From: Escherichia coli
Lineage (GTDB): Bacteria; Pseudomonadota; Gammaproteobacteria; Enterobacterales; Enterobacteriaceae
Assembly (NCBI RefSeq): GCF_003019035.1
Contig: NZ_CP027448.1
Length of the DNA stretch: 64,000 bases
Reading direction: 5' to 3' (one strand)
The translations under genes and the position numbers were made by a program. Under the pieces are notes generated by a model that saw nothing but the letters and a program-made list of their open reading frames with translations, was not told where the DNA came from and did no database searches. Positions 933-58,996 of this stretch are shown piece by piece. Numbering within the stretch: position 1 is the first letter of the stretch; each line of letters opens with the position of its first letter.

Positions 933-940
933 CCTGTTCA

Positions 941-3094: not shown

Positions 3095-3345
3095 GATGAT
3101 ATTCCGAAGAAAAAAGTCAGTCGGACTGATTATTAATGATGAAAAGATTAATAACCGTTAAATTCCGGCTTCGCCGGCAACACTTCACGGTCGCACAAAG
3201 AATTTGCACAACCGCTCAGTGTTTTCATATTTATTTCGGAAACGCCGGGGAGAAATAAAATTTATTTTATTTCTTTCCGGGGTTGGACAACGAGCAAAGC
3301 GAGGCGTCAGTCAGGAGGCCGGTCAGACCAGCCTCCGGAAGATAA

Positions 3346-4077: not shown

Positions 4078-4090
4078 CCAAAATATCCTT

Positions 4091-4600
4091 TTAACTAACA
4101 GACTCTTTTTTGAACAGCCCTATTACTGAGGCTATAGCTGAGAGATTATAACGATTTATGTCTATAGCATAAATAAAGAAAAAGATTATAAACAAAGCAA
4201 TTAATAAAAACTCATATAAGAGTGTATGGGCAAATGAAACCATTGAAAAAGCAATCAAAAATGACAAGATATAAGTTTTGTTCTTATCATACATAAAAGA
4301 TATAACTTTCGACTCATCTCTGAATTTTTCAGGGATAGCAAGATACAACATCATTCCATTAGTAATGGCAACAAAAAGGATAAAACCCATTACGCCACTA
4401 AAACATATATCAAATCCGGCATCTCGGATATCAATTTTATCTGCCAGCAAACGAAGAAATGTTGGCCATAATAAAACCCATAAAAACACATACCCCCCTG
4501 GCTTTATGACCTGTAATAATGGCGGGATATTAACCCCGTCTACAGAGAGTACATCCTTTAGTTTCTGTGTCTCCATTTTTATATCATAGTGAGTGATCAT
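4091..4600 (-). CDS. traS: Entry exclusion inner-membrane protein TraS
   Basis: 169-aa hydrophobic protein located between traG and traT; assigned by position and character, sequence family is variable. Confidence 0.7.
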
Positions 4601-7422: not shown

Positions 7423-8795
7423 AGTGTGCTCCCTCCGAAGTGATAGTTGTTCTGGTAACGACTGAGCATGCGGGCGGAAAGCTGCTGACGCATGTAGCTC
7501 ATCTGACGATCGACAACCAGCAGCGCATCCTGCTGTACCTGCACCTGTGACTGAAACGCCGCAATCTGCCGGGTGGCATCATTCATGTTGTCGTTAATAT
7601 GCTCGATAACCGCTTCGTCATAATTTCCCGTGGCCACCATCGCCCGGGCCTGCTGTATCAGCTCCTGAATGTACTGCAGCAGGATGTCGTAACCGATATA
7701 GTCCGTCAGCTGGTAAATCATGCTGTTGGAAACGCCGAGCATCTGCGGGTCAACCAGATATTTGAAGACGGGGATGGTGGTACTGGAAATAAAACCTTTT
7801 TCCTTGTCATCCAGAGGCGTGTCACTGACCGCTTTGTTCTGAATGCTGGCCAGAAGTTTAGTAATCTGAGACTTCAGTGCATTATCCCGGCTGATGGTCA
7901 CCGGTGTGTCAGCCACCACTTTCAGGCATTTATCAGAATCGTTGCAGTGATAAATTTTTGCTGTGCCGCCTTCCATCATGGCCCGGATAATTGAGCGGTC
8001 AGAGGTTCTGGCTGACAGCGGTGTGATTTCGCCGTTGGGACCAAACACCAGTGAGCCGGTCAGCGTCATCACAAATTCTTTCAGCTCTTTGTTGCCGTCA
8101 AACATTCTGTTTTTGGAAAGCGCATTCCACATGATGTTGATGTTTTTGGTCACCCGCTCCTTATCCTTGTCGCTGGCTTTATCCCTGACACTGTCAGATT
8201 TCCCGCCAACGGTACATCCCTGCCGGGAAGCCGCCCAGTCAGCAAAAATATTGCTCTCACCGGCAATGTCCTGACAGACTTTCTGCTGGGACACCTGCGT
8301 CCGGGGGAAAAGCCCGCCGATAATCCCCTGTGCAGCCTGGCAGGAACTGAGGTTCATACTGTTAATGTCGCTTGCCATTTTCTGCACGAAGTCTTTTGCG
8401 GTTTTTATTTCCGGCACCGTTGTCTGCAGGGCAAGGTCAAAAAAGTAACCGGCAGCATTGCTCATAATCTGCTTAACAAAACGCTGCAACTGCTCACCAT
8501 TAATAAAACTGAACGAGCCGAGATAGGCGTCGATGCCGCCACATCCAGCATTGATATCCGGCAGCGTCATGGAAATTAGCTGAACATTTTTGACCTGAGT
8601 ACGGGCATACAGGGAGCCACCGTAAGCATAGCCGGCGGCCTGCCCCTGCCAGACGCCCGGCTGTGTGGTATTGGAAGCAAATCCCAGCTTATTAAAGAAC
8701 TGATTCATGTCGCTGTTCACATCCGCTGACGCTGCAGGCGTCACCGTCAGTAAGGCGGCACAAAGAACCAGAAGAGGTTTAATGCGTGGCATCAT
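7419..8795 (-). CDS. traH: Pilus assembly protein TraH
   Basis: 458 aa with signal peptide; synteny upstream of traG; 4-nt overlap with traG. Confidence 0.93.
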   Translation of the reverse strand: MMPRIKPLLVLCAALLTVTPAASADVNSDMNQFFNKLGFASNTTQPGVWQGQAAGYAYGGSLYARTQVKNVQLISMTLPDINAGCGGIDAYLGSFSFINGEQLQRFVKQIMSNAAGYFFDLALQTTVPEIKTAKDFVQKMASDINSMNLSSCQAAQGIIGGLFPRTQVSQQKVCQDIAGESNIFADWAASRQGCTVGGKSDSVRDKASDKDKERVTKNINIMWNALSKNRMFDGNKELKEFVMTLTGSLVFGPNGEITPLSARTSDRSIIRAMMEGGTAKIYHCNDSDKCLKVVADTPVTISRDNALKSQITKLLASIQNKAVSDTPLDDKEKGFISSTTIPVFKYLVDPQMLGVSNSMIYQLTDYIGYDILLQYIQELIQQARAMVATGNYDEAVIEHINDNMNDATRQIAAFQSQVQVQQDALLVVDRQMSYMRQQLSARMLSRYQNNYHFGGSTL

Positions 8796-9172
8796 TCTTG
8801 CCCTCCCTTAATGTGTTCTCCCGGTGCATACGACATTTCAGCAGGAATATCTTGATATTTCCGTATATTAATTCGTACATTGGGGACAGAAAAAAATGTA
8901 ACAAGAAACCCGGCTGCAAGCGCATATAACGTATACGGAATGGCATATATCAGGATATTCCACATATAACTCGAATTATTTAATTCCGGGTCCGCTTTCC
9001 ACGAATCAATACAGGCATCAAAAATAATATCCATAACTGTCCATAAAACAATTCTGGCAGTCAGGAATACCAGAGACAACCCAGCATACCTGCCAGTAAT
9101 TCTGGAAATGTATTTATAATCTCGTTCTGTACTTCTGATTTTGAGTTCAGGATTACTTTTATTTTCTCTCAT
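8792..9172 (-). CDS. trbF: TrbF (small membrane protein); start trimmed to internal Met giving 126 aa
   Basis: ORF 8792-9205; position between trbJ and traH as in F; start inferred. Confidence 0.55.
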   Translation of the reverse strand: MRENKSNPELKIRSTERDYKYISRITGRYAGLSLVFLTARIVLWTVMDIIFDACIDSWKADPELNNSSYMWNILIYAIPYTLYALAAGFLVTFFSVPNVRINIRKYQDIPAEMSYAPGEHIKGGQE

Positions 9173-10246: not shown

Positions 10247-10326
10247 GTTAAACTCCGGTTATTATTTACATGAGAGTATTCATGTCTGTAATATTCGCGT
10301 TTGTGTGATATTAATCAGAGGTACAA

Positions 10327-42278: not shown

Positions 42279-43205
42279 TCATCCGCCATAATGCGCCACA
42301 TTGTCGACTATCCACGCAGGTCCGGTGACCTCCGGCAGCTCATCGTCATCTGTCGGGGAAGACCATTCCTGTTCCCCCCACAGAACATCAACAAGCTCTC
42401 CACGCTCATATCGCTGCCAGCCACAGAAATTGCAGCCCTGTTCGGCATACCAGTGCTCCAGCGTGCAGCCGAAACGGCGGCTTAATTCTGCAACAACGTC
42501 GCTTTCCGGCTGACACCACGGCGTGTCAAAATCCACCTGAATGAAGTTTTCTCCCTGACGGCCGATATTCAGGTCATACCCACAAGGCCACTTCACGCCA
42601 TACCGTTCCGTATACCAGTGATATGCAGAAGGAACACCGTTCAGAACACCACCGTTAAAGCCGTTCACTTCAACATCCAGGCGGGTCGGCAGAACCGTCA
42701 GCAGGTCAAACGGCATGGTTTTTTCCGGCACTACGTTGTCACACAGACGGTTCCACCACACCGATACATCCTCGTTACTCCAGAAGCCACACCAGTCACC
42801 TCTTTTTGCGGTGAAAAGTGCGGTGATGGTATCCCTGACATCGTCCGGTAATCCTTCCCAGCGACGCTGTCCAGTACCGCTCTGCAGCCAGAGTTCATGC
42901 AGCATCAGGCAGTTTTGCTCATCCAGCAGTACACCGTCCTGCAGATATGTCAGCCAGCGGGTGAACGCGATATTCTCCGGCGATACAACGCCACGCCCGG
43001 CAGCCGTCAGTCCGGGGCATGGTTCAAACCGCACATCTTCAGTGGTCTGCAGAAGTCCGGCACTTCCGGCCAGAAACAGCTGAATACCTTCATTTGTGGC
43101 GCGGCGATAAAGCGGTGTGACTGCGCCGCTGGCCAGTCGTTTAATCTCAGCGATCTGTGCCGGTTCACCAGAAAAATACATACGATTCGAGCACCAGTTT
43201 GGCAT
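42279..43205 (-). CDS. Conserved leading-region protein with MPNWCxN N-terminus (DUF1281/Api92-like as recalled), 308 aa
   Basis: ATG 43205 preceded by GAGGAGA; track ORF starts 43250. Family name from memory. Confidence 0.65.
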   Translation of the reverse strand: MPNWCSNRMYFSGEPAQIAEIKRLASGAVTPLYRRATNEGIQLFLAGSAGLLQTTEDVRFEPCPGLTAAGRGVVSPENIAFTRWLTYLQDGVLLDEQNCLMLHELWLQSGTGQRRWEGLPDDVRDTITALFTAKRGDWCGFWSNEDVSVWWNRLCDNVVPEKTMPFDLLTVLPTRLDVEVNGFNGGVLNGVPSAYHWYTERYGVKWPCGYDLNIGRQGENFIQVDFDTPWCQPESDVVAELSRRFGCTLEHWYAEQGCNFCGWQRYERGELVDVLWGEQEWSSPTDDDELPEVTGPAWIVDNVAHYGG

Positions 43206-43559
43206 GGGAATTCTCCTCTCACATGCGGCCTCCATCAGGCCGTGCCGCACCTGTAACCGGGCGACCGCATACGAATGCAGGTGCGGCCCCGAAGCCGCAG
43301 CGCGTGGAGGAGGAACGACGAAACGTGACCGGGTGAGGAGGCCGGCGACAGCGACACACTTGCATCGGATGCAGCCCAGTTAACGTGCCGGCACGGCCTG
43401 GGTAACCAGGTATTTTGTCCACAGAACCGTGCACAAAATGCTGTGGATAAGCTGGACACAGCAGCCCACAGCAGGCATACAGCCACACCCTCAGAGAATT
43501 GAACGTTTTTTAGCCGCAACAATGACATTTGACTGTATGTGGATTCAGTTATTAGAATG

Positions 43560-43575
43560 CTGTATATGCATACAG
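43560..43575 (+). promoter_or_regulatory. LexA operator (SOS box) upstream of impC
   Basis: CTGTATATGCATACAG fits CTGT-N8-ACAG; a weaker CTGTATGTGGATTCAG lies at 43542-43557. Confidence 0.75.
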
Positions 43576-43598
43576 CAAAAGAAAAGAGAGATGAGAAC

Positions 43599-43847
43599 AT
43601 GATCCGCATTGAAATTCTTTTCGACCGCCAGAGCACAAAAAACCTCAAATCAGGCACACTTCAGGCGCTACAGAATGAAATCGAACAACGACTGAAACCA
43701 CACTACCCGGAAATCTGGCTGCGTATAGACCAGGGCAGCGCCCCGTCTGTATCTGTCACAGGAGCCCGCAACGACAAGGATAAAGAACGTATCCTGTCTC
43801 TGCTGGAAGAAATCTGGCAGGACGACAGCTGGCTGCCTGCAGCATGA
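43599..43847 (+). CDS. impC: DinI-like small protein (ImpC-like)
   Basis: 82 aa MIRIEILFDRQ...EEIWQDDSWLPAA; start chosen downstream of the LexA box. Confidence 0.75.
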   Translation: MIRIEILFDRQSTKNLKSGTLQALQNEIEQRLKPHYPEIWLRIDQGSAPSVSVTGARNDKDKERILSLLEEIWQDDSWLPAA

Positions 43848-44281
43848 GTACCGTTTATCACCGTCCGGCTGACCCTTCAGGCGATGACAGTTACGTGCGA
43901 CCGTTGTTTGCCGATCGTTGCCAGGCCGGTTTTCCTTCGCCTGCCACTGATTATGCTGAGCAGGAACTGGATCTGAACAGCTATTGCATCAGCAGACCTG
44001 CAGCCACCTTCTTTCTGCGCGCCAGCGGTGAATCGATGAACCAGGCTGACGTGCAGAATGGTGATCTGCTGGTAGTGGACAGGGCCGAAAAACCACAACA
44101 CGGGGACATCGTTATCGCTGAGATCGACGGTGAGTTCACCGTCAAACGACTGCTGTTGCGCCCACGCCCGGCACTGGAGCCGGTTTCAGACAGCCCGGAG
44201 TTCCGCACACTGTATCCGGAAAACATCTGTATTTTTGGTGTTGTCACTCACGTGATACACAGGACGCGGGAGTTACGCTGA
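43844..44281 (+). CDS. impA: UmuD/ImpA-like S24 peptidase subunit of error-prone polymerase
   Basis: 145 aa with Ser-Lys dyad context (ASGESM ... FTVKRL). Confidence 0.88.
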   Translation: MSTVYHRPADPSGDDSYVRPLFADRCQAGFPSPATDYAEQELDLNSYCISRPAATFFLRASGESMNQADVQNGDLLVVDRAEKPQHGDIVIAEIDGEFTVKRLLLRPRPALEPVSDSPEFRTLYPENICIFGVVTHVIHRTRELR

Positions 44282-44407
44282 TGTTTACACTGGCTGATAT
44301 CAACAGTTTCTACGCCTCATGTGAAAAAGTTTTCCGCCCGGACCTTCGCAACGAACCGGTCATCGTACTCAGCAATAACGATGGCTGTGTGATCGCACGC
44401 AGCCCAG
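44281..44407 (+). pseudogene. impB: 5' fragment of umuC/impB-like Y-family polymerase gene, interrupted by insertion
   Basis: Translates MFTLADINSFYASCEKVFRPDLRNEPVIVLSNNDGCVIARSP then homology is lost at 44408. Confidence 0.85.
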
Positions 44408-44453
44408 ATTATGTGGAATTGCAAGTAACGTTGTAGTGCTGATGAGGAAAATT

Positions 44454-46682
44454 TTATCTGACTACAATATTGATATCGTTTTCCGCAACAATCAGCATCA
44501 CGGCAGGTAAACCCTCCACACGCATTTTCTGGTGTAATTTTTTGATTAAATTATCATCTTCATTACTGGCTTTTGCGGAAAAGCCTTGTGGATGGGAGTG
44601 CCATTCGCCAACATAATCGACAACACGAGCGGTCAACTGGTGAACCCGTTCTAATGCTTCTTGTTGTCCCGCTTCTCCCCGGACAAAGGAGGCTGGAGAG
44701 GATTTACTGTCGATAGGTTCAGGGAGCACGTCAACCAGAATAATCGTTTTGTTCTTAAAATCTGTTATGCCAACAATTGCACCTCCTGTTTCATTAGGCA
44801 GTGCCTGTAAGCGGGTGTGCTGCAATTTTTGCGCTAAGCCCTGGTCATATTTAACAACCCATTCGCCAGAAATTATAGATACCACGGAATAGAGTTCAAT
44901 TTCATGTGCATCCATCGCGCCTGATATTTCATCAGATACCCAGATACACAATCGAGCATTTCCTTTGAGTGCAGTCTGGCGAAGTTGGCGTGAGAGGATA
45001 CCGGCATGAACATGAATACATTCACTGGACATACGTACAGAAATATCCCGACATCCACCACCGACCCAACGATCGCCATAATTGTGCTGTAGGTGAGTAC
45101 TTCCCCACTCACTGCTCAAAATTGCCCGATAGTATTGCCCCTCAATTGCATCAATTCGGCATTGTCTGTCTACATCCTCCATTAACATCACGCTAGACTG
45201 ACCCGATGGAGTCAGAAACAGGCTAACTATTCTGGGTATATCATCTTTTAACACTAGAGTCCTCGGCACCTCAAAGGTGGTACTGACATCCACAACTAAG
45301 TCTGCCTCATTCATTGCCTTAGCAATATCATCATCGTCATCAAGAATACTTTTATGGATCGCCTGAGGGAGGGGCTCATGCGGATAAATAGATTTGGCAA
45401 TATGCTGAATAATATGGGGTTTTGAGACTCCAATATGACAATCAAACCCAATATGGCGAGACAAATTATGTGGAAGAAGCCGATCTGGATCAATAAAAGT
45501 CCATGTCCCCCACCCCATTCGAATCCAAATATCAGCCAATGTACTACCAAGAGCGCCAACTCCAGCTAAAATACCTCGAAAAGCTGCACTCTCTGAATCA
45601 ACAGCAGATATGTCTCTCGCATGTGTGGCCTTCATAGCCGAACGTATTTCAACTGGTAAAAGCGGTAATTGTCGCCACTTGGTACTAATTGATCCGCCAA
45701 GAAGCCGTACGCGATGCTGTACTCCTCGCTCATTTTTTGGCGCCAGCATATCTAGTGCAGTGGCAAGTTCACCGAGTGAACTTTGCACAACATAGCCCAT
45801 CACATCCGTACGTTCTGTTTCTCCGTTTCTTAGACGGGGGATCCAAAGCAGGATAAGTAAGCCTTCTCCTTTACCAGACGTTGGGCGGATACCATCACTT
45901 GGTATTGCTTCATAAACAGCGTCAGTTAGTGGTTTTAGGAGCTCACTTCCCCATTCATTAAGTTGTTCTTCTAATTTTCCCAGATTATCCGGGTATGTAG
46001 CCACCGTAGAAACATCGACAGGAGGAACAGCAATAGTTAATAAGCGAAATGGCTTAACGCTTGAGGTATCTTGTTCTGGTACAGCCCTTAAAATAATCGG
46101 TCGCCCCTCACTGACCATCTGGAGACTGAGCTTATTGTCAGTCGCGTGATGATAATCGGGGTAATTGGCTGGCAAAATGAGCTGATAGGGACTCAAATAA
46201 AAAAGTTGCTCAAGTGGCTGATCTTCTCGATGTAGATGCAGTTCGGCCGATTCTCTAAGCCACCAAAAAATGCGCTCAAGGAATCTCTCGGGGGTCCAAC
46301 TGCGCTCAACTGCGCTCCAGGAGGCCTCATATAGGCAAAGAATTCGTGGTGAGCCAGGTTCTCCAGCATGCTGGTGAGAAAGAACAGGGAAATCTTTCCG
46401 CAATGCATGAACCAAGATAGGTATGCTTGATTTGGGATTGACCTCAATAGCCAATCGTTCTTTACGACGAATACGGGCTTGATTACCAGAAGCCACAGTC
46501 CCATCAGCAGCATCAATGATTAGATATTCCGAGCGGTTATCATTTATTTCAGAAAATCGTAATTCTCTGACTGTGACGTAAGGATGATTCTCGCATGCTT
46601 TAAGCAGCGAAATCGTTTGTGGATAAAGGCTATCGCGCCCCGATGAATCGAGGCGCTCACCCAATTCGAAATATTCGATCAT
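44454..46682 (-). CDS. Multidomain E2-like / E1-like (ThiF) / JAB-JAMM peptidase fusion protein (742 aa)
   Basis: HQH..10 aa..C (E2-like), GILAGVGALGSTLADIW...IDPD (ThiF Rossmann), EWHSHPQGFSAKASNEDD (JAMM HxH..S..D) read directly from the translation; ATGA overlap with upstream MBL gene. Confidence 0.75.
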   Translation of the reverse strand: MIEYFELGERLDSSGRDSLYPQTISLLKACENHPYVTVRELRFSEINDNRSEYLIIDAADGTVASGNQARIRRKERLAIEVNPKSSIPILVHALRKDFPVLSHQHAGEPGSPRILCLYEASWSAVERSWTPERFLERIFWWLRESAELHLHREDQPLEQLFYLSPYQLILPANYPDYHHATDNKLSLQMVSEGRPIILRAVPEQDTSSVKPFRLLTIAVPPVDVSTVATYPDNLGKLEEQLNEWGSELLKPLTDAVYEAIPSDGIRPTSGKGEGLLILLWIPRLRNGETERTDVMGYVVQSSLGELATALDMLAPKNERGVQHRVRLLGGSISTKWRQLPLLPVEIRSAMKATHARDISAVDSESAAFRGILAGVGALGSTLADIWIRMGWGTWTFIDPDRLLPHNLSRHIGFDCHIGVSKPHIIQHIAKSIYPHEPLPQAIHKSILDDDDDIAKAMNEADLVVDVSTTFEVPRTLVLKDDIPRIVSLFLTPSGQSSVMLMEDVDRQCRIDAIEGQYYRAILSSEWGSTHLQHNYGDRWVGGGCRDISVRMSSECIHVHAGILSRQLRQTALKGNARLCIWVSDEISGAMDAHEIELYSVVSIISGEWVVKYDQGLAQKLQHTRLQALPNETGGAIVGITDFKNKTIILVDVLPEPIDSKSSPASFVRGEAGQQEALERVHQLTARVVDYVGEWHSHPQGFSAKASNEDDNLIKKLHQKMRVEGLPAVMLIVAENDINIVVR

Positions 46683-47866
46683 TGGTTTGATACACCTGCC
46701 CTAGGAGCGGCGGCCGTAGCAGCACTTACCGCAGCTGAAACAGCACCAACAATAGCGGGTATTAACTTCCCGTCTCCAGCCACTTCAAATTCAAGGAACG
46801 CTGTATCTTTAAGATCCCCCGTACAGCTAAACCAACCATCAACACTGTCCAGAATATCCTCATACTCACGCTTAGCCCGGATGCACGGTGGATCATAATC
46901 ATCATCAAGTATCTGATTGCTACTCGATACAATTGTTGCCCCGGAACGAGCCTGACCTAAAGCATTACGGGCCGCATCACAAACTTCAGCATTCTCCCCC
47001 CATTGTGACCAGCTATCATAGGAAAGTGAATGCCATGAACAATGATGCGGTGTGAGGAGAAGATCATATTCTAGTGCCTCAGCATTGCTTTTGTAACGAT
47101 CCCATAATCGCTCCCAGATGAGAACTTCTGCGTCTCCACCTAATAGAAAGTGCATAGGATTACGGGAATATGCAGAGGGCAGTATTTTCATGTTCATGAT
47201 GATACTGGATTCGTTTTTAGAAAGAGCTTCTTCCAAATATTCATCATCTTCATGTGGTGCGGGCGCCAGAAGCTGTGCGGAGAACACTTCTGAAATTTGC
47301 CCGTCAATTCTGGTGAATGTATCTCCAGCTTTGATAAGAATGGCACTCAGATCATCTGTTTTGCCATTAATATCTTCACCCATGATAAGGATTCGATTAC
47401 CGCTAGATGCATAACCATGTTCCCGCCAGTATTTTACTCGGCGCCGTGCTTCTGTATTAAATGCCTGAGCATCTTCGCAAAGTGTGTGACTTTTGGAACG
47501 ACGCCGAAAAATCAATGGTGATGACCACAATTCTCGAATAATGATACGCTTTTCTGAACGTTTCACATCGTCATCTGGATAATCTTCAGGACGGCCCAGC
47601 CAGAAATGTTTACGCAGGCCACCGCAATGATCCTGATCGGGATGACTGAGCATAAAAACATCAATAAAGGGACGATCTTTTTCATCATACTTCAATCTGC
47701 TACGTAATGCCGAGGCAACATCAGGTGTGTCATCATTGGGGTTATCAGCAGCAGAGCGAATATGTACATCAATCAGAATGGATGTGCCCCGGGTGTCGGC
47801 CAAACGTACCAGTGTCATATCACCGTTGCCGACTTGGAAAAAAGTAATTTTGGCTGCCATCGACAT
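46679..47866 (-). CDS. Metallo-beta-lactamase-fold protein (395 aa) with Ala/Gly-rich C-terminal tail
   Basis: MBL-like motifs ...LIDVH..., SHPDQDHCGG, ...TPHHCSWH...; C-terminus ...AIVGAVSAAVSAATAAAPRAGVSNQ. Confidence 0.75.
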   Translation of the reverse strand: MSMAAKITFFQVGNGDMTLVRLADTRGTSILIDVHIRSAADNPNDDTPDVASALRSRLKYDEKDRPFIDVFMLSHPDQDHCGGLRKHFWLGRPEDYPDDDVKRSEKRIIIRELWSSPLIFRRRSKSHTLCEDAQAFNTEARRRVKYWREHGYASSGNRILIMGEDINGKTDDLSAILIKAGDTFTRIDGQISEVFSAQLLAPAPHEDDEYLEEALSKNESSIIMNMKILPSAYSRNPMHFLLGGDAEVLIWERLWDRYKSNAEALEYDLLLTPHHCSWHSLSYDSWSQWGENAEVCDAARNALGQARSGATIVSSSNQILDDDYDPPCIRAKREYEDILDSVDGWFSCTGDLKDTAFLEFEVAGDGKLIPAIVGAVSAAVSAATAAAPRAGVSNQ

Positions 47867-47994
47867 CTCCTTTAGGGATACGAAAGATTGAGGTTAAGAG
47901 CATCTATTGCTAAGATACATCTAGTAATTATACTAGTCTAGTAATTAGACGTATATTTTGGACTTAAATTGTAAGTACAGGAAATTATTGATAA
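47867..47994. promoter_or_regulatory. Divergent promoter/operator region with tandem direct repeats (TCTAGTAATTA x2)
   Basis: AT-rich intergenic region between divergent MBL operon and WYL gene; repeats at about 47918-47950. Confidence 0.4.
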
Positions 47995-48849
47995 ATGAGT
48001 GATAAAATGGTGAGAACTGGTCATTGGAGCCAAGAAAGACGGCTTGAATTCATCGATTTTCGCCTACTGTGGGAAGGTCGGCTTAACCGTGCAGATCTCA
48101 CGACATTTTTCAGAATTTCAGTTCCGCAAGCCTCATTAGATTTGGCAAAATATCAAGAAGTTGCGCCAAACAACATGGTGTATGATCGAACTCAGAAGGC
48201 TTACATTACGACTCCTGATTTCAAACCTGTTTTTACAAGCTTTGACAGTAATCATTACCTGAATGAACTACTTGGGCGAGAAAATGAAATAGTGGATCCT
48301 GATGATAGTTTCATTGGGTGGGTACCCCCGGTAGCCAGCCTTCCTCTCCCTGCCAGGAAAGTACAACCTGAAATATTGATTGATTTAATTCGAGCCATGC
48401 AAAGAAAACAGGCTTTGGTTGTTGATTATCGCTCAATGACTAATGAACCAGCAATTCGTACGCTATACCCAACAGCATTTGCACATGATGGGCATCGGTG
48501 GCATGTTCGTGCTTATTGTTTTAAGTCTACAATGTTTAAAGATTTTGTTCTTGGTAGGTTTTTTAAAATCGTTGAATTTGTTTCCCCACCGACATCAATT
48601 CCACAAGATGTGGACTGGAATACATTTATTGACGTGGTAATAGGTCCAAACCCTAACTACGATATGAATAAACGGCTATCTATTGAACATGATTATCAAA
48701 TGGTAAAAGGAGAAGCAAAAATCCACATACGTAAAGCGCAATTATATTATCTTAATCGTCGATTAAATTTGGATGTAAATAGCGATGGTTCAATAGATGA
48801 CAAACAGCAGATCATCATGCTCAGAATAGACGAGTCTAAAACCTATTAA
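47995..48849 (+). CDS. HTH-WYL domain transcriptional regulator (BrxR/CapW-like)
   Basis: 284 aa; central ...HDGHRWHVRAYCFKSTMFKDFVLGRFFKI... fits the WYL pattern; N-terminal HTH-like region. Confidence 0.7.
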   Translation: MSDKMVRTGHWSQERRLEFIDFRLLWEGRLNRADLTTFFRISVPQASLDLAKYQEVAPNNMVYDRTQKAYITTPDFKPVFTSFDSNHYLNELLGRENEIVDPDDSFIGWVPPVASLPLPARKVQPEILIDLIRAMQRKQALVVDYRSMTNEPAIRTLYPTAFAHDGHRWHVRAYCFKSTMFKDFVLGRFFKIVEFVSPPTSIPQDVDWNTFIDVVIGPNPNYDMNKRLSIEHDYQMVKGEAKIHIRKAQLYYLNRRLNLDVNSDGSIDDKQQIIMLRIDESKTY

Positions 48850-48861
48850 GGGAATATTTAT

Positions 48862-49380
48862 ATGAATGCGAATGATGTTAACAAACGGAATAAAGAATGG
48901 ATGATTGTAATCATTATTATCTATCTTTTTATTTTGTTATGTATAGCAACATACGCTATTGGGGCTATGTCTCTAGGTTGGTTACCAACACCTTACGCAC
49001 CATTAAGGGTGCCACTGATGTGCGGAGCAATTGCCTATATAGGTGGTTGTTTATATTGTTTTCGTGCAATTTACCTCAATAAATGTATTAGAAAACAATG
49101 GGATCCAGATTGGCATGTATGGTATTTCATTCGCCCACTGACCAGTACAATCGCAGGTGCTATCAGTTATTTATTCCTTAAGGCGGGGTTGTTAGTTTTG
49201 GAGTCTAGTTCCAATGTAGGAGCTAGTGAAATGGGTTTCTTTGCGCTGGCATTTATTGCTGGTTTTAACGTCGATAAATTTGTCGCAAAAATCGAGGAAG
49301 TTGCAAAGGCTGTCTGGGGTATTGAAAAAACTCGAAGCTCGACTAATAATGATGCGAAAAATTCGGAAAAAAAAGAATAG
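48862..49380 (+). CDS. Small membrane protein (about 4 predicted TM helices, 172 aa)
   Basis: Hydrophobic segments throughout; 12 bp downstream of the WYL gene. Confidence 0.55.
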   Translation: MNANDVNKRNKEWMIVIIIIYLFILLCIATYAIGAMSLGWLPTPYAPLRVPLMCGAIAYIGGCLYCFRAIYLNKCIRKQWDPDWHVWYFIRPLTSTIAGAISYLFLKAGLLVLESSSNVGASEMGFFALAFIAGFNVDKFVAKIEEVAKAVWGIEKTRSSTNNDAKNSEKKE

Positions 49381-49426
49381 TCTGGATGTATTTAAATTAA
49401 AATGAAATTAGTGCTGAGCTATTTTA

Positions 49427-50746
49427 TTACTTTCTCTTATTTCCTGGGGTCGCGCCCCCAGTGAGCTTATTCAAAAGTTTGTCCACTGCCTGTATATCGT
49501 TTTCTACAGCGGCTTGTTCGTCATCAGTCAAAGGGATTTCCTGCATCAGCTTGAGTAGATTCTGGCGACCTTCCAAGTATTGTGCTTCAGATGAAGATTT
49601 TGGCATATAAAATGAGCATTTTGCACATGCCATCCGATGGGGGCATTGCTCAAAAAAGTCATAAGTACAGAAACCGTGTCCAAGATCATAATAACGCCAT
49701 GGCTTCCCGGATGCTACCAGCCCTTCAGCTATCGCGTCTTGATCAATGAGAACTGAAACCATGCGGCGATTACATTCAAAGTAACCAGCTTTATCCAGTG
49801 ATCCTGCCAACCTCGTCGGTGTAATTTCGACATAATGTCGGGTAGATTCAGGTGAAGAATGCCCCAACCATTTCTGTAGCTCAAAAATATCAAGTGGTTC
49901 CCTGGCGTTGTAAAGCTGACTGGCTATAGTGGCTCTTGCCCGATGGCTGGTGATTTTACCTCTGGCATCCTGCTCAGGTATACCAGCCTTTCTGCATAGC
50001 AAAGGGATTAGCGAATTATTAATATAACTACTGTGTACCCGTTTCCCCCTGTGCATGAACAAAAAACGGACGCTTTCACCTGTTTTAGAATCTTCCTGGA
50101 GGGGGTGGGGGTTACGAACAAGTTCCCATTGTTCGATATATTCCCCGATAATAGGGTCAACTGGCTTTGTGAATGCCGCGTAAGTCTTGCTAACGGGTAC
50201 ATCTATCAGACAGATACGGGATACATTATTTTCTTCTGGCTGTTGCCAGCGGATACACCCACACTGCATACGTAGAATTTCATCACGTCTGAGGCCTCCA
50301 AATAACCAGAGAACGCTGAGTGCTCTGACCATCTCCAGTGGATAAAAATAAGGATATGCAACACAGTTTGGTAAATCCGACTCCTGCAGGTTCTGTCCGG
50401 CGTGAAGTAATTTACACCACATATCATCGGCCACAATACGAGGCTCTGGTCCAACCAGGGAAGTCAAGCTACGCGGTGCCCTGAAAACTCTTTCTGGGCT
50501 GAATCGTACAGGTATCCATCCCCATTCCTGCAAGTCATGAAAGAAAGTTCTAATATGACCCAACATCCTGGCTCTCGCTGCAGGCATCATCATTTTGCCA
50601 CGACGGTCACGATACATGCCCCCAGGGGTTGCCCATTCACCAACTTTCATTCTACAAGCGGCGGTCACCCAGACGATCGCGGTGTCCCGTGTCCAATCAG
50701 ATGGTGACAGACAGGTTGGATAGCACTCAGCTAACCAGCTGACCAC
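49427..50746 (-). CDS. Tyrosine recombinase/integrase (439 aa)
   Basis: Catalytic signature residues: ...GGLRRDE..., ...SHRARAT..., ...LGHSSPESTRHYV... Confidence 0.85.
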   Translation of the reverse strand: MVSWLAECYPTCLSPSDWTRDTAIVWVTAACRMKVGEWATPGGMYRDRRGKMMMPAARARMLGHIRTFFHDLQEWGWIPVRFSPERVFRAPRSLTSLVGPEPRIVADDMWCKLLHAGQNLQESDLPNCVAYPYFYPLEMVRALSVLWLFGGLRRDEILRMQCGCIRWQQPEENNVSRICLIDVPVSKTYAAFTKPVDPIIGEYIEQWELVRNPHPLQEDSKTGESVRFLFMHRGKRVHSSYINNSLIPLLCRKAGIPEQDARGKITSHRARATIASQLYNAREPLDIFELQKWLGHSSPESTRHYVEITPTRLAGSLDKAGYFECNRRMVSVLIDQDAIAEGLVASGKPWRYYDLGHGFCTYDFFEQCPHRMACAKCSFYMPKSSSEAQYLEGRQNLLKLMQEIPLTDDEQAAVENDIQAVDKLLNKLTGGATPGNKRK

Positions 50747-51677
50747 ACTTTAGCAAAACGTACCAACCGGACAAAATAGATGAAGGGCGAAGTACTGAGG
50801 TAGCACGCCACCGTTTGCACCATACCAGCCATTTAGTTGGTACATCAGCTGTTGCATTATATTCGCGGGGAGGACGGCGACGTTGTGTTATTCGGTAATC
50901 AACCCCTTCCTCAATAGTCCCTGATGCAGCCAGTATACGCGATAGAGTAGCTGAGGCTTCCCGGAGGGAATCCGGGCACGTTGCAGCAATCTGTTGCAAC
51001 GTGGTCACGGTGATATGGTCTAGTTGAGCATCCCTTTGCAGAAGCATTGCCATACACATGGCATTTCTGATGCCGTTGTTCCGACTATCACGAGGCACAT
51101 ATCCCAGAACCTGCATCATATTGTCAAGCTGGCTGACGGCAAAATCGGTGCTCTGTCGGCCAAAAACCTTAAGACAGAGCCGATATTGATAGAATATGCC
51201 ACAGTGTTCCAGCCGCTCAAACCCACATAGCAACCATGCTAACGCTATAACATATTGCCGACAGTTGCCGCTGGCTCCAAACCGTCGACGAAATTCCCCT
51301 TCGCTGTTGCAAATAACTTCTAACCACTCTTCTTGTGTCCAGGCCCAGTATGTTTTCCGGATGCGCTGCATCTCTAGGACTATATCGTGAATAGATGAAT
51401 TGTAGGGGGCCTTGGCCGCATGCATTTTTGTTAGCGTGTCGCGTAGTGGTAAAAGAAGGCGGGAAAGCCGTTTTTGTATATCAGGTGACCAGTTTTTACC
51501 TCCTTGCTGGAAGTGGTCGACCAATGTATCCAGTGCCGCAAGCTCGCTTTCAGAGATCTCCGATCGGGTATCCCAAAGTAGGGCAGGAAGACTGAGTGAT
51601 GTTGTCGGACAAGGCGCTGTATGTTCAGATTGCATCATGGAGAAGGATCCTGCTGTTGTAGTACAGTAAGGCGGCAA
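50727..51677 (-). CDS. Recombinase-operon middle gene (316 aa), divergent/uncertain
   Basis: Overlaps both neighbours (translational coupling); no clear R-H-R-Y motifs seen by eye. Confidence 0.55.
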   Translation of the reverse strand: MPPYCTTTAGSFSMMQSEHTAPCPTTSLSLPALLWDTRSEISESELAALDTLVDHFQQGGKNWSPDIQKRLSRLLLPLRDTLTKMHAAKAPYNSSIHDIVLEMQRIRKTYWAWTQEEWLEVICNSEGEFRRRFGASGNCRQYVIALAWLLCGFERLEHCGIFYQYRLCLKVFGRQSTDFAVSQLDNMMQVLGYVPRDSRNNGIRNAMCMAMLLQRDAQLDHITVTTLQQIAATCPDSLREASATLSRILAASGTIEEGVDYRITQRRRPPREYNATADVPTKWLVWCKRWRATSVLRPSSILSGWYVLLKCGQLVS

Positions 51678-52687
51678 GTATGCAAGGATGCGACCGTGTA
51701 ATTGAAACGACTACTCAGATCACGTGCGCTGAGATGAATATAGAGCAGAGTTGACTGGATACGACGGTGGCCAGCGAATGCAGCAATTTCGTGGATGTCC
51801 CACCCCACGCGTGCCAGTTCTGTCAGACAAAGATGTCGGAATGTGTGGGTGCTGATGAGTGGAAGATCAGCCTTAATAGCTAAACCGCGAACTACTTTTG
51901 ACCAAGTCCAGTTGCTAATAGGTTCTGCCCGATTACGCGGAGAGCGTGAGAGAAACAACGGACCGCGAGATGAGCTTAGCATACGACGTTCAGTGAGCCA
52001 TGCTGTGTAGAGTTCCCCCGTCACAGGAGAATAGGGCACAACCCGACCAAAGCGGTTTTTGGTATGCTCAGCGCGCACAGTGAGCAAGCGTTGAGAAGGG
52101 TCAATATCTCCGGTAGCTACTGTGCAAAGTTCTTCTCTGCGTAATCCGCAGTCGTAGGCCAGTGCCAGCATAAAACGAGTACGGATATCAGCTTGTCCGG
52201 CTACCTCAAGAAAGCGCAACCACTCCGCATCATCCGGGATCCACGGTAGCCGCCGCTGCAACGGCACTATACCAGCTTTTCCTTTCCCTCCGTTTTTCCA
52301 GACACCTCGTCTGACAGGATTTCTCTCCCGTATCCCCTCCTCACAAAGCCAATAGTTGTACAGTCGTACCACCGTCAGCCGGTGGCGGATAGTGGCAGCT
52401 GCCAGCTGGCGACCGGTATGCAGGCTGCGGACATAGAGTGCGACCGTATCACGTCCAGCGACAGCAGCCGTCAGGGCAACAGAGTGACAGAAAGCGAGCC
52501 AGTCATTGACGCCACGGGCATAGGCATCAATGGTGTTTGGAGCACACAGCAGGTCCTCCTGCAGGCACACCCACCGGCAAGCTGAAGGATCGGCCGACAG
52601 AAAAGGCAGCGCATCCAGCAGTTTCTTGTGCACAGCATCCCCCTTTTCGATAACAGAATGTGTTGTATGAAATATAGTCAATTCCAA
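51635..52687 (-). CDS. Tyrosine recombinase (XerC/D-like, 350 aa)
   Basis: ...CGLRREEL..., ...HTFRHLCLTELA..., ...GHRRIQSTLLYIH...; start lies 9 bp from element end. Confidence 0.85.
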   Translation of the reverse strand: MELTIFHTTHSVIEKGDAVHKKLLDALPFLSADPSACRWVCLQEDLLCAPNTIDAYARGVNDWLAFCHSVALTAAVAGRDTVALYVRSLHTGRQLAAATIRHRLTVVRLYNYWLCEEGIRERNPVRRGVWKNGGKGKAGIVPLQRRLPWIPDDAEWLRFLEVAGQADIRTRFMLALAYDCGLRREELCTVATGDIDPSQRLLTVRAEHTKNRFGRVVPYSPVTGELYTAWLTERRMLSSSRGPLFLSRSPRNRAEPISNWTWSKVVRGLAIKADLPLISTHTFRHLCLTELARVGWDIHEIAAFAGHRRIQSTLLYIHLSARDLSSRFNYTVASLHTCRLTVLQQQDPSP

Positions 52688-52696
52688 ATAACATAG

Positions 52697-53841
52697 AAGC
52701 GAAGCGGCTGGGCATAAAAATGGGAGTACCGTGGTTTCAGCTGAAGTCGGTGAAATTTCCGGAGCCGGTCATCGCCTTCTCCAGTAATTACGCGCTATAC
52801 GCATCGATGTCGAACAGGGTTATGTCTCATCTCGAGGAGCTGGCGCCGGGCGTGGAGCAGTACAGTATTGATGAGATGTTTCTCGACGTGCGGGGTATTG
52901 ACAGCTGCATCGATTTCGAGGATTTCGGCCGGCAGCTGCGTGAACACGTCAGGAACGGGACTGGCCTGACTATCGGTGTCGGAATGGGGCTAACCAAAAC
53001 GCTGGCAAAGTCAGCACAGTGGGCTTCCAAAGAGTGGCCACAGTTTGGTGGCGTGCTGGCGTTAACGCCAGGCAATATCCGCCGTACGGAAAAACTGCTG
53101 TCACTGCAGCCGGTGGAGGAAATCTGGGGGGTAGGCAGCAGGATATCAAAGAAGCTGAACACAATGGGGATAACAACTGCACTGCAGCTGGCGCGCGCTA
53201 ACCCTGTATTTATCAGGAAAAACTTCAATGTGGTTCTGGAGAGAACGGTCCGGGAACTCACCGGAGAAAGCTGTATTTCACTGGAGGAAGCACCGCCCCC
53301 CAAACAGCAGATAGTCTGCAGCAGGAGCTTTGGGGAACGTGTCACAACTTATGAAGCCATGCGACAGGCAGTTTGTCAGTACGCTGAGCGTGCAGCTGAA
53401 AAGCTGCGCGGCGAGCGTCAGTTCTGCAGGCATATTGCCGTGTTTGTGAAAACATCGCCGTTCGCCGTAAATGAGCCCTACTACGGTAATCTGGCCAGTG
53501 AAAAACTGCTCATCCCCACGCAGGATACACGGGACATCATTGCCGCTGCCGTCAGAGCTCTGGACAGGATCTGGGGGGATGGTCACCGTTACGCAAAGGC
53601 AGGCTGTATGCTGAACGATTTCGCTCCTGACGGGGTTTCGCTGTTGAACCTGTTCGATGATACTCAGCTCCGAAGCAACAGCAATCAGCTGATGAAAGTT
53701 GTGGACGGTATTAATCATTCAGGACTCGGAAAAGTGTGGTTTGCAGGCCGGGGGATTGCATCTGAATGGCAAATGAAACGGGAGATGCTTTCACCAGACT
53801 ATACAACTCGCTGGTCTGAACTACCAGTAGCGAAATTATGA
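52697..53841 (+). pseudogene. impB: 3' portion of umuC/impB-like Y-family polymerase gene (continues frame of 44281-44407)
   Basis: EAKRLGIKMGVPWFQLKSVKFPEPVIAFSSNYALYASMSNRVM...SRSFGERVTTYEAMRQAV... matches remembered UmuC/MucB; track ORF 52720-53841 starts at internal Met. Confidence 0.88.
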
Positions 53842-53977
53842 GTCACGTAGAAGTTGAGAAAAAGTGGTGATTTCAGTGTGAAAGAATTTTTATTTTTCTT
53901 TTATAATCAAAGAAGTAGCCATGAAATAGGCATGGTGAAAAACATAAGACAAGGATGCTCTCCGGCATCCTTGTCGC

Positions 53978-54949
53978 TTACTCACTTGACTCAGGAAGTC
54001 TTTCCAGAATACGTTTTATTGCCTCATCTATCTCCGACTGTGCCTCAGCGGAAATGCGGGAAAACTCATAAACAACAAGTCGTTTCTTTGAATCAATTTT
54101 CTTTCTTGCAAATTGGTTGCGATCTGAAAATTCTCTCAGCTTCTCAGTTTGAACCGTGCGGGTCGGGCGAACTATCAGCGATTTGCTCTCAGCTCTGATA
54201 ACAGCCAGAATTTTGCTTTTATCAATTGCCGGATAATCTGGCATGGTCTTCAACCGATGCTGAACTTTTTCCATCAGTTCTGTTACTGATCTTTGCTTGT
54301 TGTTTGCTTCTTCAGCTAGTTTCAGTAAAAAATGATAATCCGGCAACGAAATATCATTTATCACAGGGAAAACTGCAACCATTTCATCTGGCACTGCTGC
54401 GGCCTGAAACGCACGAGTCACTTTCGCAGGAGAGAGATTTTCTGCCTGAGCAATCTCTTCCTTCGTCATACTGGTTCCATACGTAACTTCGAGTCGTTTT
54501 CCCAGCTCACGCAAGCTATGCTCACGTGCGGTTTGTATGTCTTTTGCCAGTTGTCGTGCATCTGACAGTTCAATATCGTCCTTTGTAACAAGTATTTCGA
54601 ATTTAACATTGCTATAAATGCAGGCTGCCCGGCGACGTGTGCCGTCCAGGATCTCAATTCGCCCGTTGACCTCTCTCCCAATAGCGGGGAAAAACTGCTG
54701 CAGTTTTATGGTACGGGAAATGTCACTGACTGACTCAGGGGATAACATTGCCTGGTCGCGACCATTAACAGATGAATCAACAAATGTCTTCGATTCGATC
54801 TCACCGCTTAGCACAACCGTTTTCACAAATTTGGCCTGTTTACCAGATTTGAGAGTAAAGGTTTTCACATCGCCATCGCTTTCAAGCATTCGCGCAAATT
54901 CTGAATTGCTGTTGCCAAGAACTCGGCCACGAGCTAAAACTTTCCTCAT
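53978..54949 (-). CDS. parB: ParB partition protein (P1/P7-type)
   Basis: 323 aa, ParB-like HTH region; 4-nt overlap with parA. Confidence 0.82.
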   Translation of the reverse strand: MRKVLARGRVLGNSNSEFARMLESDGDVKTFTLKSGKQAKFVKTVVLSGEIESKTFVDSSVNGRDQAMLSPESVSDISRTIKLQQFFPAIGREVNGRIEILDGTRRRAACIYSNVKFEILVTKDDIELSDARQLAKDIQTAREHSLRELGKRLEVTYGTSMTKEEIAQAENLSPAKVTRAFQAAAVPDEMVAVFPVINDISLPDYHFLLKLAEEANNKQRSVTELMEKVQHRLKTMPDYPAIDKSKILAVIRAESKSLIVRPTRTVQTEKLREFSDRNQFARKKIDSKKRLVVYEFSRISAEAQSEIDEAIKRILERLPESSE

Positions 54950-58189: not shown

Positions 58190-58996
58190 TCAGGATAATT
58201 GTTTCAGCATCACAACCGCATCAGATTCCGGCATCGCAAACTGCACCCGGTGCCGTGCAGCCACATCCAGTGCAAACACCTTCGTGTAGACCTCCGTTGA
58301 GCTGATGGACTTATGCCCCATCAGGCTCTGCAGGACCTTCAGCGGTATACCGGCATACAGCATGTGCATCGCATAGGAATGGCGGAACGTATGTGGTGTG
58401 ACCGGAACAGAGAACGTCACACCGTCAGCAGCAGCGGCGGCAACCGCCTCCCCAATCCAGGTCCTGACCGTTCTGTCCGTCACTTCCCAGATCCGCGCTT
58501 TCTCTGTCCTGCCTGTTCGTTTATTACGCCGTTCCATGGGGATTTTCAGTGTGGCCACCATCGTCTGCAGCTGGCTGACGTACCAGGCATCAGAGAGCGG
58601 AACCAGCCGGTGAGTCTGCTGACCGGCGGGCATTCTTCCTGCCGTCCTGGCTGCTTTTTCGGTCCGTTGTTTCAGGGTCGCAAGCTGCACAAACGGATAC
58701 GGAGGCGCGAGCGAAAAATCCCCCCGCGTCAGCGCCAGTGCTTCATTAATGCGCGCACCGGTGTTCCACAGTGTGGCCAGCAGCATCTTGCGGCGCAGAT
58801 CCGGGACGTAATGGAGCAGGGCACTCACTTCCGGAGCCAGCAGATATTTCGGCAGTTCATCATGGACCATCGACATCTGGCGAAGTGCCAGAGCTGCCGG
58901 ATAATCAATGACAACAGGAAGTTGTGGAGACTGTCCGGCAGAATACACTGCCGGTACCATGGCTGCAGACTGGCTGTGTATAACGGAGCCTGACAT
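58190..58996 (-). CDS. resD: ResD-like tyrosine recombinase (multimer resolvase, 268 aa)
   Basis: ...HTFRHSYAMHMLYAGIPLKVLQSLMGHKSISSTEVYTKV...; downstream of ccdAB as in F. Confidence 0.82.
   Translation of the reverse strand: MSGSVIHSQSAAMVPAVYSAGQSPQLPVVIDYPAALALRQMSMVHDELPKYLLAPEVSALLHYVPDLRRKMLLATLWNTGARINEALALTRGDFSLAPPYPFVQLATLKQRTEKAARTAGRMPAGQQTHRLVPLSDAWYVSQLQTMVATLKIPMERRNKRTGRTEKARIWEVTDRTVRTWIGEAVAAAAADGVTFSVPVTPHTFRHSYAMHMLYAGIPLKVLQSLMGHKSISSTEVYTKVFALDVAARHRVQFAMPESDAVVMLKQLS

Follow-up and report, generated by a model that had tools for sequence, protein, structure and literature searches.

A probable Tn554 relative with predicted 6A-MBL defence cargo interrupts a umuC-type gene on an Escherichia coli plasmid

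In a 64,000-nucleotide stretch of Escherichia coli plasmid DNA (hereafter the window; RefSeq assembly GCF_003019035.1, contig NZ_CP027448.1), the umuC-family gene impB is interrupted by more than 8 kb of DNA that encodes recombinases. What kind of element is this, how would it have entered the gene, and can this copy still move? The original prediction, made from the letters alone, took it for a recombinase-in-trio (RIT) element placed precisely within impB. In our analysis it is probably a site-specific, Tn554-related element that has two recombinases and no TnpC, carries a 6A-MBL cargo and homes to umuC; the window copy would be disabled by a frameshift, and its flanks would have been recombined.

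The inserted DNA measures 8,289 bp and lies at 44409–52697, as placed by the map of open reading frames (ORFs) and by the junction sequences. The impB/umuC-type frame breaks after ...GCACGCAGCCCAGA at 44408 and is continued in frame from AGCGAAGCGG... at 52698; the insertion point is after codon 42 of this frame. A megablast search of positions 43800–54000 against 72,556 plasmids gave end-to-end matches of 99.4–99.9% in E. coli and E. albertii plasmids, for example pSE11-2. For Klebsiella IncFIB/HI1B plasmids, the sole match covered query positions 609–8898 (44408–52697 of the window), with 98.2% identity. The block is a discrete unit, because the Klebsiella plasmids share only this block and have different flanks; its boundaries agree with those originally predicted. 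Among 5,426 complete E. coli genomes, 16 hold at least 80% of the element, and ∼1,600 have an uninterrupted gene which matches the 5′ fragment up to the junction. The G+C content of the element is 45.7%, compared to 52.9% in impCAB and to 57.5% and 47.5% in the left and right 8 kb, respectively; the AT-richness that had been noted by eye is real but modest, as other 8.3-kb windows of the same sequence span 45.1–58.8%. An Rfam scan of 43000–54500 gave no match.

Both junctions could be read directly in three insertions. In the window they are ...CAGCCCAGA/TTATGTGGAATTG on the left and CAATTCCAAATAA-CATAGA/AGCGAAG on the right (slashes mark the junctions), and no empty site was found for this copy. 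The pAMSC6 copy reads GCAGCCCGGA/element/GGCAAAAGCC (left, ...CAGCCCGGA/TTATGTGG; right, ...CATAGA/GGCAAAAGCC), and its true empty counterpart in pEC974-1 is GCAGCCCGGAGGCAAAAGCC (...CAGCCCGGAGGCAAAAGCC). The Klebsiella copy has GGCCAGTTTA/TTATGTAG on the left and ...CATAGA/CAACGAGC on the right; the corresponding empty site, in NZ_CP032223, is GGCCAGTTTACAACGAGC. In both cases with a true empty site, zero target bases are duplicated or deleted. The original prediction of a precise, in-frame insertion into a umuC-family gene without target duplication is borne out by the 8,289-bp block and by these two sister copies; the comparison with uninterrupted impB/umuC plasmids that it proposed yielded empty sites for the sisters and none for the window copy. 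Another of its proposals, to look for the same element at other loci, led to the Klebsiella plasmids, pAMSC6, E. coli CI5 and further umuC-type sites.

Three recombinase genes had been read at the right end of the element; we found two. The small one (51635–52633, minus strand; ORF1 of the prediction) is intact and encodes a TnpA-like tyrosine recombinase of 332 aa, placed by NCBIfam among the XerC/XerD-like recombinases. In an alignment of eight homologues, its catalytic R, K, HxxR, H and Y are invariant; this alignment and the upstream ribosome-binding site AAGGGGGA fix the start at GTG 52633, 64 nt from the element end. The start 9 bp from the end that had been proposed belongs to an over-extended ORF. 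The TGA of the small gene overlaps the ATG of the large gene as ATGA (4 bp). The large, TnpB-like gene (49427–51638, minus strand) encodes 736 aa when intact and is a pseudogene here because of a frameshift; Pfam and fold matches and homology to Tn558 TnpB identify it as a recombinase gene. It takes in both ORF2 and ORF3 of the prediction. With NCBIfam, ORF3 gave a weak C-terminal recombinase match only, and no recombinase domain or catalytic motif was found in ORF2 (50727–51677), which corresponds to the N-terminal 297 residues of the large recombinase and is ended here by a +1 frameshift. Alignment to the Klebsiella element located a single extra base at 50740 (T on the plus strand), which splits the gene; in its coding-strand context, GGTC-A-GCTGG, it lies outside any homopolymer and in no slippery run. 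The extra base is common to the window and pSE11-2 and absent from the Klebsiella copy and pAMSC6. Intact 736-aa proteins are encoded at locus L001 (Klebsiella), L102 and L103.

Among 5.8 billion proteins searched, 513 relatives of the large recombinase were found; the full-length relatives among the best 120 of these are 732–770 aa in size. The 439-aa fragment of the window forms its own cluster with 708 member sequences. One Phage_integrase domain (Pfam, residues 439–606) is present in the 736-aa protein, and its AlphaFold model (pLDDT 78.5) matches XerA, Tn1549 Int, IntI, lambda Int and Cre over ∼360 columns. The invariant residues are R450, K484, H565-x-x-R568, H593 and Y602, together with a C-x7-C-x-H-x3-C-x2-C motif. 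The N-terminal ∼300 residues are helical, gave no informative PDB match in the fold search, and are kept family-wide within one chain. Of the three ORFs in which recombinase folds had been expected, ORF1 matches XerC/XerD-like recombinases, ORF2 and ORF3 give a recombinase fold as the fused large protein, and ORF2 by itself has no recombinase domain. Because the +1 frameshift truncates the large recombinase, the window copy is very probably immobile on its own.

Sequence comparisons identify both recombinases as distant homologues of the Tn554-type TnpA/TnpB pair, with TnpC absent. The large recombinase matched TnpB of Tn558, a member of the Tn554 family, with a blastp E value of 5e-8; a profile built from 14 large recombinases aligned with the same protein over 288 columns (hhalign probability 94%, E 1.3e-7), and the alignment takes in the C-terminal G.C...CPH..AC..C motif. 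With the pair of Rhodococcus plasmid pBD2, blastp gave E values of 1.7e-17 for the small and 9e-14 for the large protein; the homology of the small recombinase to Tn554-type proteins runs through this pBD2 partner. A DUF6262 (TnpC-like) third gene lies beside the pBD2 pair. No tnpC was found here: no co-directional ORF follows the large gene, which has a divergent membrane-protein gene and a WYL gene as neighbours, and DUF6262 is absent from the gene tables of homologous loci. Pairs called 'Tn554-related', in which a long recombinase of 611–828 aa stands beside one of ∼350 aa, some of them without TnpC, were described by Van Houdt et al. (2012; PMC3414803).

Like the window element, the Tn554 family (Tn554, Tn558 and Tn6674, of Staphylococcus and Enterococcus) and the actinobacterial long/short pairs have adjacent, co-oriented small (∼330–360 aa) and large (>600 aa) recombinase genes at one end, and some of the actinobacterial relatives are also TnpC-less (PMC3414803). 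The Tn554 family further shares site-specific insertion into a DNA-repair-type gene, an unduplicated target, and terminal inverted repeats that are short and imperfect; its 6-bp core has a putative counterpart in the window element. Different from Tn554, the window element has no TnpC/DUF6262, and its 736-aa large recombinase has an unrelated helical N-terminal region of ∼345 aa. Its target is umuC codon 43 instead of att554; its own 6 bp are constant, show no visible donor footprint and stand at the recombinase-proximal end. The hosts differ as well, being Proteobacteria and Acidobacteria, and the predicted cargo function is anti-phage defence, not antibiotic resistance.

The ends of the element are 13-bp terminal inverted repeats. 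The left, cargo-side repeat TTATGTGGAATTG (44409–44421) abuts the target DNA; the right, recombinase-side repeat CAATTCCAAATAA (52679–52691) matches its reverse complement at 12 of 13 positions. The shared terminal motifs TATGT and GGAATTG that had been noticed earlier are real and belong to this repeat, and no longer repeat pair was found at the element ends. Between the right repeat and the target DNA lie 6 bp, CATAGA (52692–52697), the putative overlap (crossover) region carried by the element. The left repeat is kept at the same junction in relatives (L001, L002, L004–L008, L016, L017, L025, L026, L028, L031 and L102), and the 13-bp inverted repeat is conserved where the recombinases are merely 45–61% identical. 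In every case, the cargo-side repeat (TTATGTGGAAT) directly abuts the target, and the recombinase-side repeat (ATTCCAnnTAA) lies 6 bp from it. This spacer is constant per element type and differs between types (CATAGA, CATATA, CTTAGA, CAGCGA and CTTATA); it also differs from the target's own 6 bp. Because the spacer follows the recombinase-side repeat, a circular form would carry a repeat-6 bp-repeat core. The recombinase genes, the fixed site and the short imperfect inverted repeats uphold the claim of a tyrosine-recombinase integrative element. Inside the WYL gene, at 48596–48605, the 10-bp repeat core occurs a third time without mismatch, as CAATTCCACA (reverse complement, TGTGGAATTG), and forms part of the local palindrome TCCACA-AGA-TGTGGA; chance would give ∼0.02 copies in 8.3 kb. 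This copy is kept in the Klebsiella, pAMSC6 and sister copies, which share the cargo, and absent from a relative that carries CBASS, the cyclic-oligonucleotide-based anti-phage signalling system.

The target codon is used again and again. About 11 independent insertions occupy the same umuC codon (the window, pAMSC6, L004/8, L005, L006, L007, L016, L017, L025, L028 and L031), and one junction each was found at this codon in L009, L022 and L026. Targeting of codon 43 holds down to 45% recombinase identity, and on plasmids, integrative and conjugative elements (ICEs) and chromosomes. A sister element, with recombinases 61–64% identical, was found at this codon in four different umuC alleles, located on chromosomes and in an ICE/IncHI2-type locus; elements with a 45–52% identical large recombinase use it in metagenomes, in Paracoccus and in an acidobacterium; and in Pantoea rodasii a cargo-less 3.3-kb element occupies it (L025, 8949–12223). 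Overall, umuC flanks were found in Gammaproteobacteria, Alphaproteobacteria and Acidobacteria. A more distant clade (35–37% identity) inserts in the opposite orientation at a second umuC site, near codon 74 and following ...FSSNY[EA]L. Both sites are occupied by two different family elements in Erwinia mallotivora (L022, 8827–8961) and Pantoea eucrina (L023, 5631–5765), with a ∼100-bp umuC fragment between them.

One insertion departs from the canonical orientation. The Klebsiella element is inverted relative to umuC and stands on the far side of TAAACT, the very 6 bp that a canonical insertion would use; in the umuC sense it reads CGTTG/element (reverse complement)/TAAACTGGCC, where the canonical form would be CGTTGTAAACT/element/GGCC. 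In-place inversion was rejected as its origin, the junctions being shifted by exactly 6 bp. A reading of the junctions as a GA duplication or a 2-bp 'coupling sequence' was also rejected, as the right junction of the sister element has TA where the target has GA. We preferred the 6-bp geometry over the 2-bp reading because it fits better both the repeat geometry and the inverted Klebsiella case; it suggests a 6-bp overlap with no homology requirement beyond, at most, a frequent terminal GA.

From these observations we infer the following route. The small and large recombinases, encoded at one end as a translationally coupled pair, would act on an element that excises or copies out as a circle, in which the two 13-bp inverted repeats would flank the 6-bp spacer as a classical recombinase core. 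This core would recombine with a fixed 6 bp of umuC-family genes, in their conserved ...NNDGCVIAR-x-x-[E]-AK... region; these 6 bp run from the third position of codon 41 through codon 42 to the second position of codon 43 (usually Glu). The target's 6 bp would always end beside the cargo-side repeat, and the element's 6 bp beside the recombinase-side repeat. One specific strand pair would be exchanged and replication would complete the insertion, with nothing duplicated or lost; a single strand exchange followed by replication is suggested because the fixed placement of the two 6-bp segments is its expected outcome. The placement parallels the rule reported for Tn554 and for SEs (integrative elements that circularize with a strand bias), whereby one junction receives the 6 bp of the target and the opposite one those of the element (PMC10214605). 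The joint of SEs has imperfect inverted repeats of 13–19 bp on either side of a 6-bp spacer, as the putative circle here would, and SEs also resemble the window element in their target specificity and in the absence of conjugation or mobilisation genes. Unlike SEs, whose core is intA-tfp-intB-srap, the window element has two recombinase genes only, and no separate tfp- or srap-like ORF was found when gene contents were compared; its polarity is mirrored, with the target-derived 6 bp at the recombinase-distal end, and its spacer is not renewed at each move. Since umuC genes are dispensable and occur on chromosomes, ICEs and conjugative plasmids, the element could move among them and ride the conjugative vehicles.

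The cargo occupies the left part of the element. A fusion of E2-like, E1 (ThiF) and JAB domains, 742 aa in size, is encoded at 44454–46682 (minus strand) and matches the 6A-MBL cap2_3 model NF058523 with 661.1 bits, against a cutoff of 320; Prok-E2_A, ThiF and Prok-JAB domains were found by Pfam on a homologue, and E1-E2 and JAB models by PADLOC. The adjacent, overlapping gene at 46679–47866 (minus strand) encodes a metallo-beta-lactamase-fold protein of 395 aa, the MBL component of 6A-MBL (NF058524, 425.6 bits, cutoff 220). On the plus strand, a WYL/BrxR-type transcriptional regulator of 284 aa (47995–48849; PADLOC WYL, and Pfam WHD_BrxR, WYL and BrxR_CTD on a homologue) is followed by a hydrophobic, probably membrane-bound protein of 172 aa (48862–49380), placed by the ORF map as co-transcribed with the WYL gene; it is 89% identical (aa) in the sister element and has no family match in NCBIfam, PADLOC or Pfam. 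By these model matches, the cargo is the known 6A-MBL anti-phage system with a WYL/BrxR regulator and a membrane protein. The 6A-MBL system is cited as an experimentally confirmed defence system in Pseudomonas aeruginosa. The sister element carries the same cargo at 82–92% aa identity. Related recombinase modules are found with CBASS (p23141-mcr and pKP18-231-1), with cadmium/lead and arsenic resistance (pC309-p2) and, elsewhere, with other genes; because the same modules carry different genes, the cargo is exchangeable.

The two sides of the insertion do not come from one gene. To the left, impA (a umuD homologue, 43844–44281, plus strand) is intact and 99.3% identical to umuD/impA of the common plasmid impAB locus in pEC974-1, versus 62.3% to samAB of pSLT. 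The 5′ impB fragment (44281–44408, plus strand) comprises codons 1–42 and 2 nt, and its last 6 bp, CCCAGA (44403–44408), would be the target overlap core; the first 127 nt of impB are 97.6% identical to pEC974-1 and 68.5% to pSLT. In the 3′ part (52698–53841, plus strand), which runs from codon 43 onward, the preference is reversed, with 66% identity to pEC974-1 impAB versus 83.7% to pSLT samB, marking a different, samB-like umuC allele. The two gene halves joined without interruption were not found among the 72,556 plasmids, and three sampled records with at least 95% identity to the 3′ part are unannotated or interrupted. The genuine impB of pAMSC6 and of E. coli CI5 holds an element that is 99.4% identical and whose large recombinase is intact; plasmids of avian pathogenic E. 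coli (APEC) have the window's right-hand allele with an IS1-truncated element. Because the two gene halves come from different alleles, the simplest reading is that the present flanks arose by recombination between two occupied umuC-type sites, impB and samB-like, and not by a single insertion; this may have been either homologous recombination across the 8.3-kb element or a recombinase-mediated event. Of the claim that the element lies within impB, the interrupted umuC-type frame stands, and the single allele does not.

Several observations weigh against parts of this account. Outside Proteobacteria and Acidobacteria, a umuC flank was missing in most family members (72 of 80 loci, many of them located on short contigs). 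The proposed 6-bp overlap is drawn from the repeat geometry and a single inverted insertion, and the right 6 bp could simply be element DNA joined at an effectively flush target cut; unlike in Tn554 and SEs, these 6 bp lack the site-to-site variation that a donor footprint would show, and the target arms do not resemble the element repeats. The similarity to Tn554-family TnpB is distant (about 22–25% identity) and confined to the C-terminal half; the N-terminal ∼345 residues of the large recombinase match nothing. The anti-phage role of the window's 6A-MBL genes is predicted from model matches, and excision, a circle and transposition of the family are proposed from sequence.

Two rival readings concern the kind of element. 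An RIT element moved by three cooperating tyrosine recombinases would agree with the three consecutive minus-strand ORFs, with the 4-bp overlap between ORF1 and the next gene, which rit genes also show, and with an overlapping tyrosine-recombinase operon at one end of an inverted-repeat-bounded element. However, RIT elements have three separate catalytic recombinases of 315–410 aa (PMC10214605, PMC3414803), whereas the window element has two genes, one of them very large, with a single Phage_integrase domain in the fused protein and neither domain nor catalytic motif in ORF2; ORF2 and ORF3 are one gene in the sister copies and in hundreds of relatives, their split being a single-base insertion outside a homopolymer. 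The inverted repeats are also too short, at 13 bp against the 34 bp reported for RIT elements (PMC10214605). Intact 736-aa orthologues refute the three-gene form, and we give this reading hardly any credence. It is likewise very improbable that the element belongs to one of the described families that home to umuC or rulB, the Pseudomonas integron-like elements (ILEs) and the tmexCD-toprJ integrative and mobilizable elements (IMEs). Such homing by tyrosine-recombinase elements is already known, and there are likenesses: ILEs occupy a near-identical position in a umuC homologue (123 bp into rulB, compared to nt 127–128 of impB here), on plasmids and chromosomes, with a conserved recombinase end followed by variable cargo, and experiments have shown them to jump from the chromosome to a conjugative plasmid (Rhodes et al. 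2014, PMC4542609). The tmexCD-toprJ IMEs (int1-int2-hp1-hp2) are multi-recombinase elements found in Enterobacterales, Aeromonas and Pseudomonas, and their specific targets are umuC-like genes, both plasmid-borne and chromosomal (PMC9769766). The recombinases of both families are nevertheless unrelated to those of the window, and homology was rejected: the ILE proteins of pGRT1 gave short, generic motif matches only (blastp E 0.007, 4e-4 and 0.05), and int1, int2, hp1 and hp2 of the tmexCD2-toprJ2 IME gave no significant match. Compared to the 332 + 736 aa of the window, the ILE module has three recombinase genes (385 + 525 + 535 aa) and tetR, and the IME module has four genes (429 + 576 + 679 + 154 aa), with an RND (resistance-nodulation-division) efflux pump as cargo. 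ILEs also have a 3-bp GAT direct repeat, which is absent here, and recombinases co-directional with rulAB, whereas the canonical orientation of the window's family is antisense; the IME position in umuC is about codon 103, after ...EQYSID.

The other two rivals concern the history of this copy. A single insertion into a pre-existing mosaic of impB and a samB-like gene would explain the perfectly restored reading frame, and mosaics can arise by homologous recombination in conserved umuC segments. However, identity falls from 97.6–99% to about 66% exactly at the insertion point, no uninterrupted mosaic copy was seen in the plasmid set, and the two alleles each occur with the element elsewhere, in pAMSC6/CI5 and, with the IS1 truncation, in APEC plasmids; we regard a mosaic target as unlikely. 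That the window copy is still autonomous, through programmed frameshifting or a large recombinase made of two polypeptides, seems quite improbable. The frameshifted form is common, as the 439-aa cluster of 708 sequences attests, and the small recombinase and the element ends are intact; yet no slippery run surrounds the extra base, the N-terminal ∼300 residues are conserved across the family as part of one chain, and the insertion context is one and the same in all E. coli copies of the frameshifted form that were seen, as would fit vertical transmission together with the plasmid. We retain the reading of a Tn554-related, umuC-homing element whose window copy is disabled. No description of the enterobacterial element, or of umuC homing by its family, was found in the open-access literature. 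It is possible, though rather less than probable, that the window holds a decayed copy of a family which is formally undescribed in its whole combination of traits: cross-phylum occurrence, two recombinases without TnpC, homing of the proteobacterial and acidobacterial branch to one umuC codon with a second site ∼30 codons downstream in a sister clade, strand-biased exchange over a non-homologous 6-bp overlap, swapping of cargo (6A-MBL, CBASS, metal resistance), and portable homology that fuses plasmid backbones.

The target operon is SOS-regulated. A LexA box, CTGTATATGCATACAG, lies at 43560–43575 (plus strand) upstream of impC, impA and impB; it follows the pattern CTG-N10-CAG, and the operon is annotated DinI-like/umuD in identical plasmids. 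A second LexA-box-like sequence, CTGTATGTGGATTCAG, was seen at 43533–43548, both boxes being at the start of impC. Read-through from the impC SOS promoter would run antisense into the 6A-MBL cap2_3 gene. The suggestion that a recombinase promoter may form only in the excised circle had been built on the over-extended ORF. In the integrated window, no sigma-70-like site with at least 8 of 12 matches was found upstream of the small recombinase. In a simulated circle, CATAA of the cargo-side end and T of the spacer give a −10 of CATAAT with a poor −35 (ACTACA-18-CATAAT), for both the window element and its sister; a junction promoter is a weak in silico possibility. The LexA-controlled umuD promoter has the recombinases downstream of it in two settings, the inverted Klebsiella copy and the site-2 clade. 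At 10275–11459 of L001 (K. pneumoniae NZ_CP023917), the small recombinase directly follows umuD and the start of umuC, and its annotated ORF begins at the umuC ATG and runs on in frame, an arrangement that would place the recombinases under the SOS-regulated umuDC promoter. An outward promoter-like sequence, ATAACA-17-TATAGT (52650–52678, plus strand), is present within the recombinase-side end and is directed into the 3′ umuC fragment, where an ORF of 373 aa begins with ATG (52720–53841); Rhodes et al. reported a similar truncated rulB(2) ORF after ILE insertion (PMC4542609).

When one genome per species was scanned, 306 relatives were located in Actinobacteria, Chloroflexi, Acidobacteria, Cyanobacteria, Alpha- and Gammaproteobacteria, Bacteroidota and other groups. 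Many of them, often from Actinobacteria, lie on 3.3–3.9-kb contigs of high coverage (for example L057, L068 and L077), which suggests minimal, two-gene, multi-copy elements that resemble insertion sequences and have targets other than umuC. Some loci showed further peculiarities. Between the membrane-protein gene and the large recombinase, at the equivalent of window positions 49392–49398, the L001 copy has 46 extra bp (28 + 18) with a hairpin, CCCCAGGGGTAA...TTACCCCTGGG, which looks like a small palindromic insertion or a terminator. The Enterobacter ludwigii locus (L009–L011, 7808–14102) has a umuC 3′ fragment and two recombinase genes with 79% identity to the pair of the window; next come a perfect LexA box and a different umuDC operon, which is complete and shares 71% aa identity with the fragment. 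The cargo-side end was not found within the 22 kb examined of L009; either a replacement umuDC forms part of the element or rearrangement has altered the locus. K. pneumoniae pKP18-231-1 (L108/L109) has a site-2 element of the family with type II CBASS in one umuDC copy and, after ...EQYSID in the second, the unrelated int1-int2-hp1-hp2 tmexCD2-toprJ2 element. Outside the element, another tyrosine recombinase gene of the window (58199–58801, minus strand) encodes a protein with 23% identity to the small recombinase across 180 aa, probably a multimer-resolution or ccd-adjacent integrase of the plasmid itself, like the one in APEC plasmid p16_1068_1.

Taken together, the element family consists of widespread, little-studied Tn554 relatives that home to umuC-type genes. 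For annotation, the 'three integrases' on these plasmids correspond to two genes, one of them intact and the other broken. The insertion inactivates the plasmid's mutagenic polymerase, and the 8.3-kb element would have acted as a recombination bridge between different plasmid backbones. As a compact two-protein system that would insert DNA at a defined sequence without duplication or overlap homology, the family is of mechanistic interest. Counting the unrelated Pseudomonas ILEs and tmexCD-toprJ IMEs, umuC is a shared target of no fewer than three recombinase families, which use three or four different sites in it; this makes umuC a general landing pad worth scanning for cargo. Targeting of a conserved, dispensable and SOS-regulated gene, present on chromosomes, ICEs and conjugative plasmids, would explain how a non-conjugative defence island can spread.

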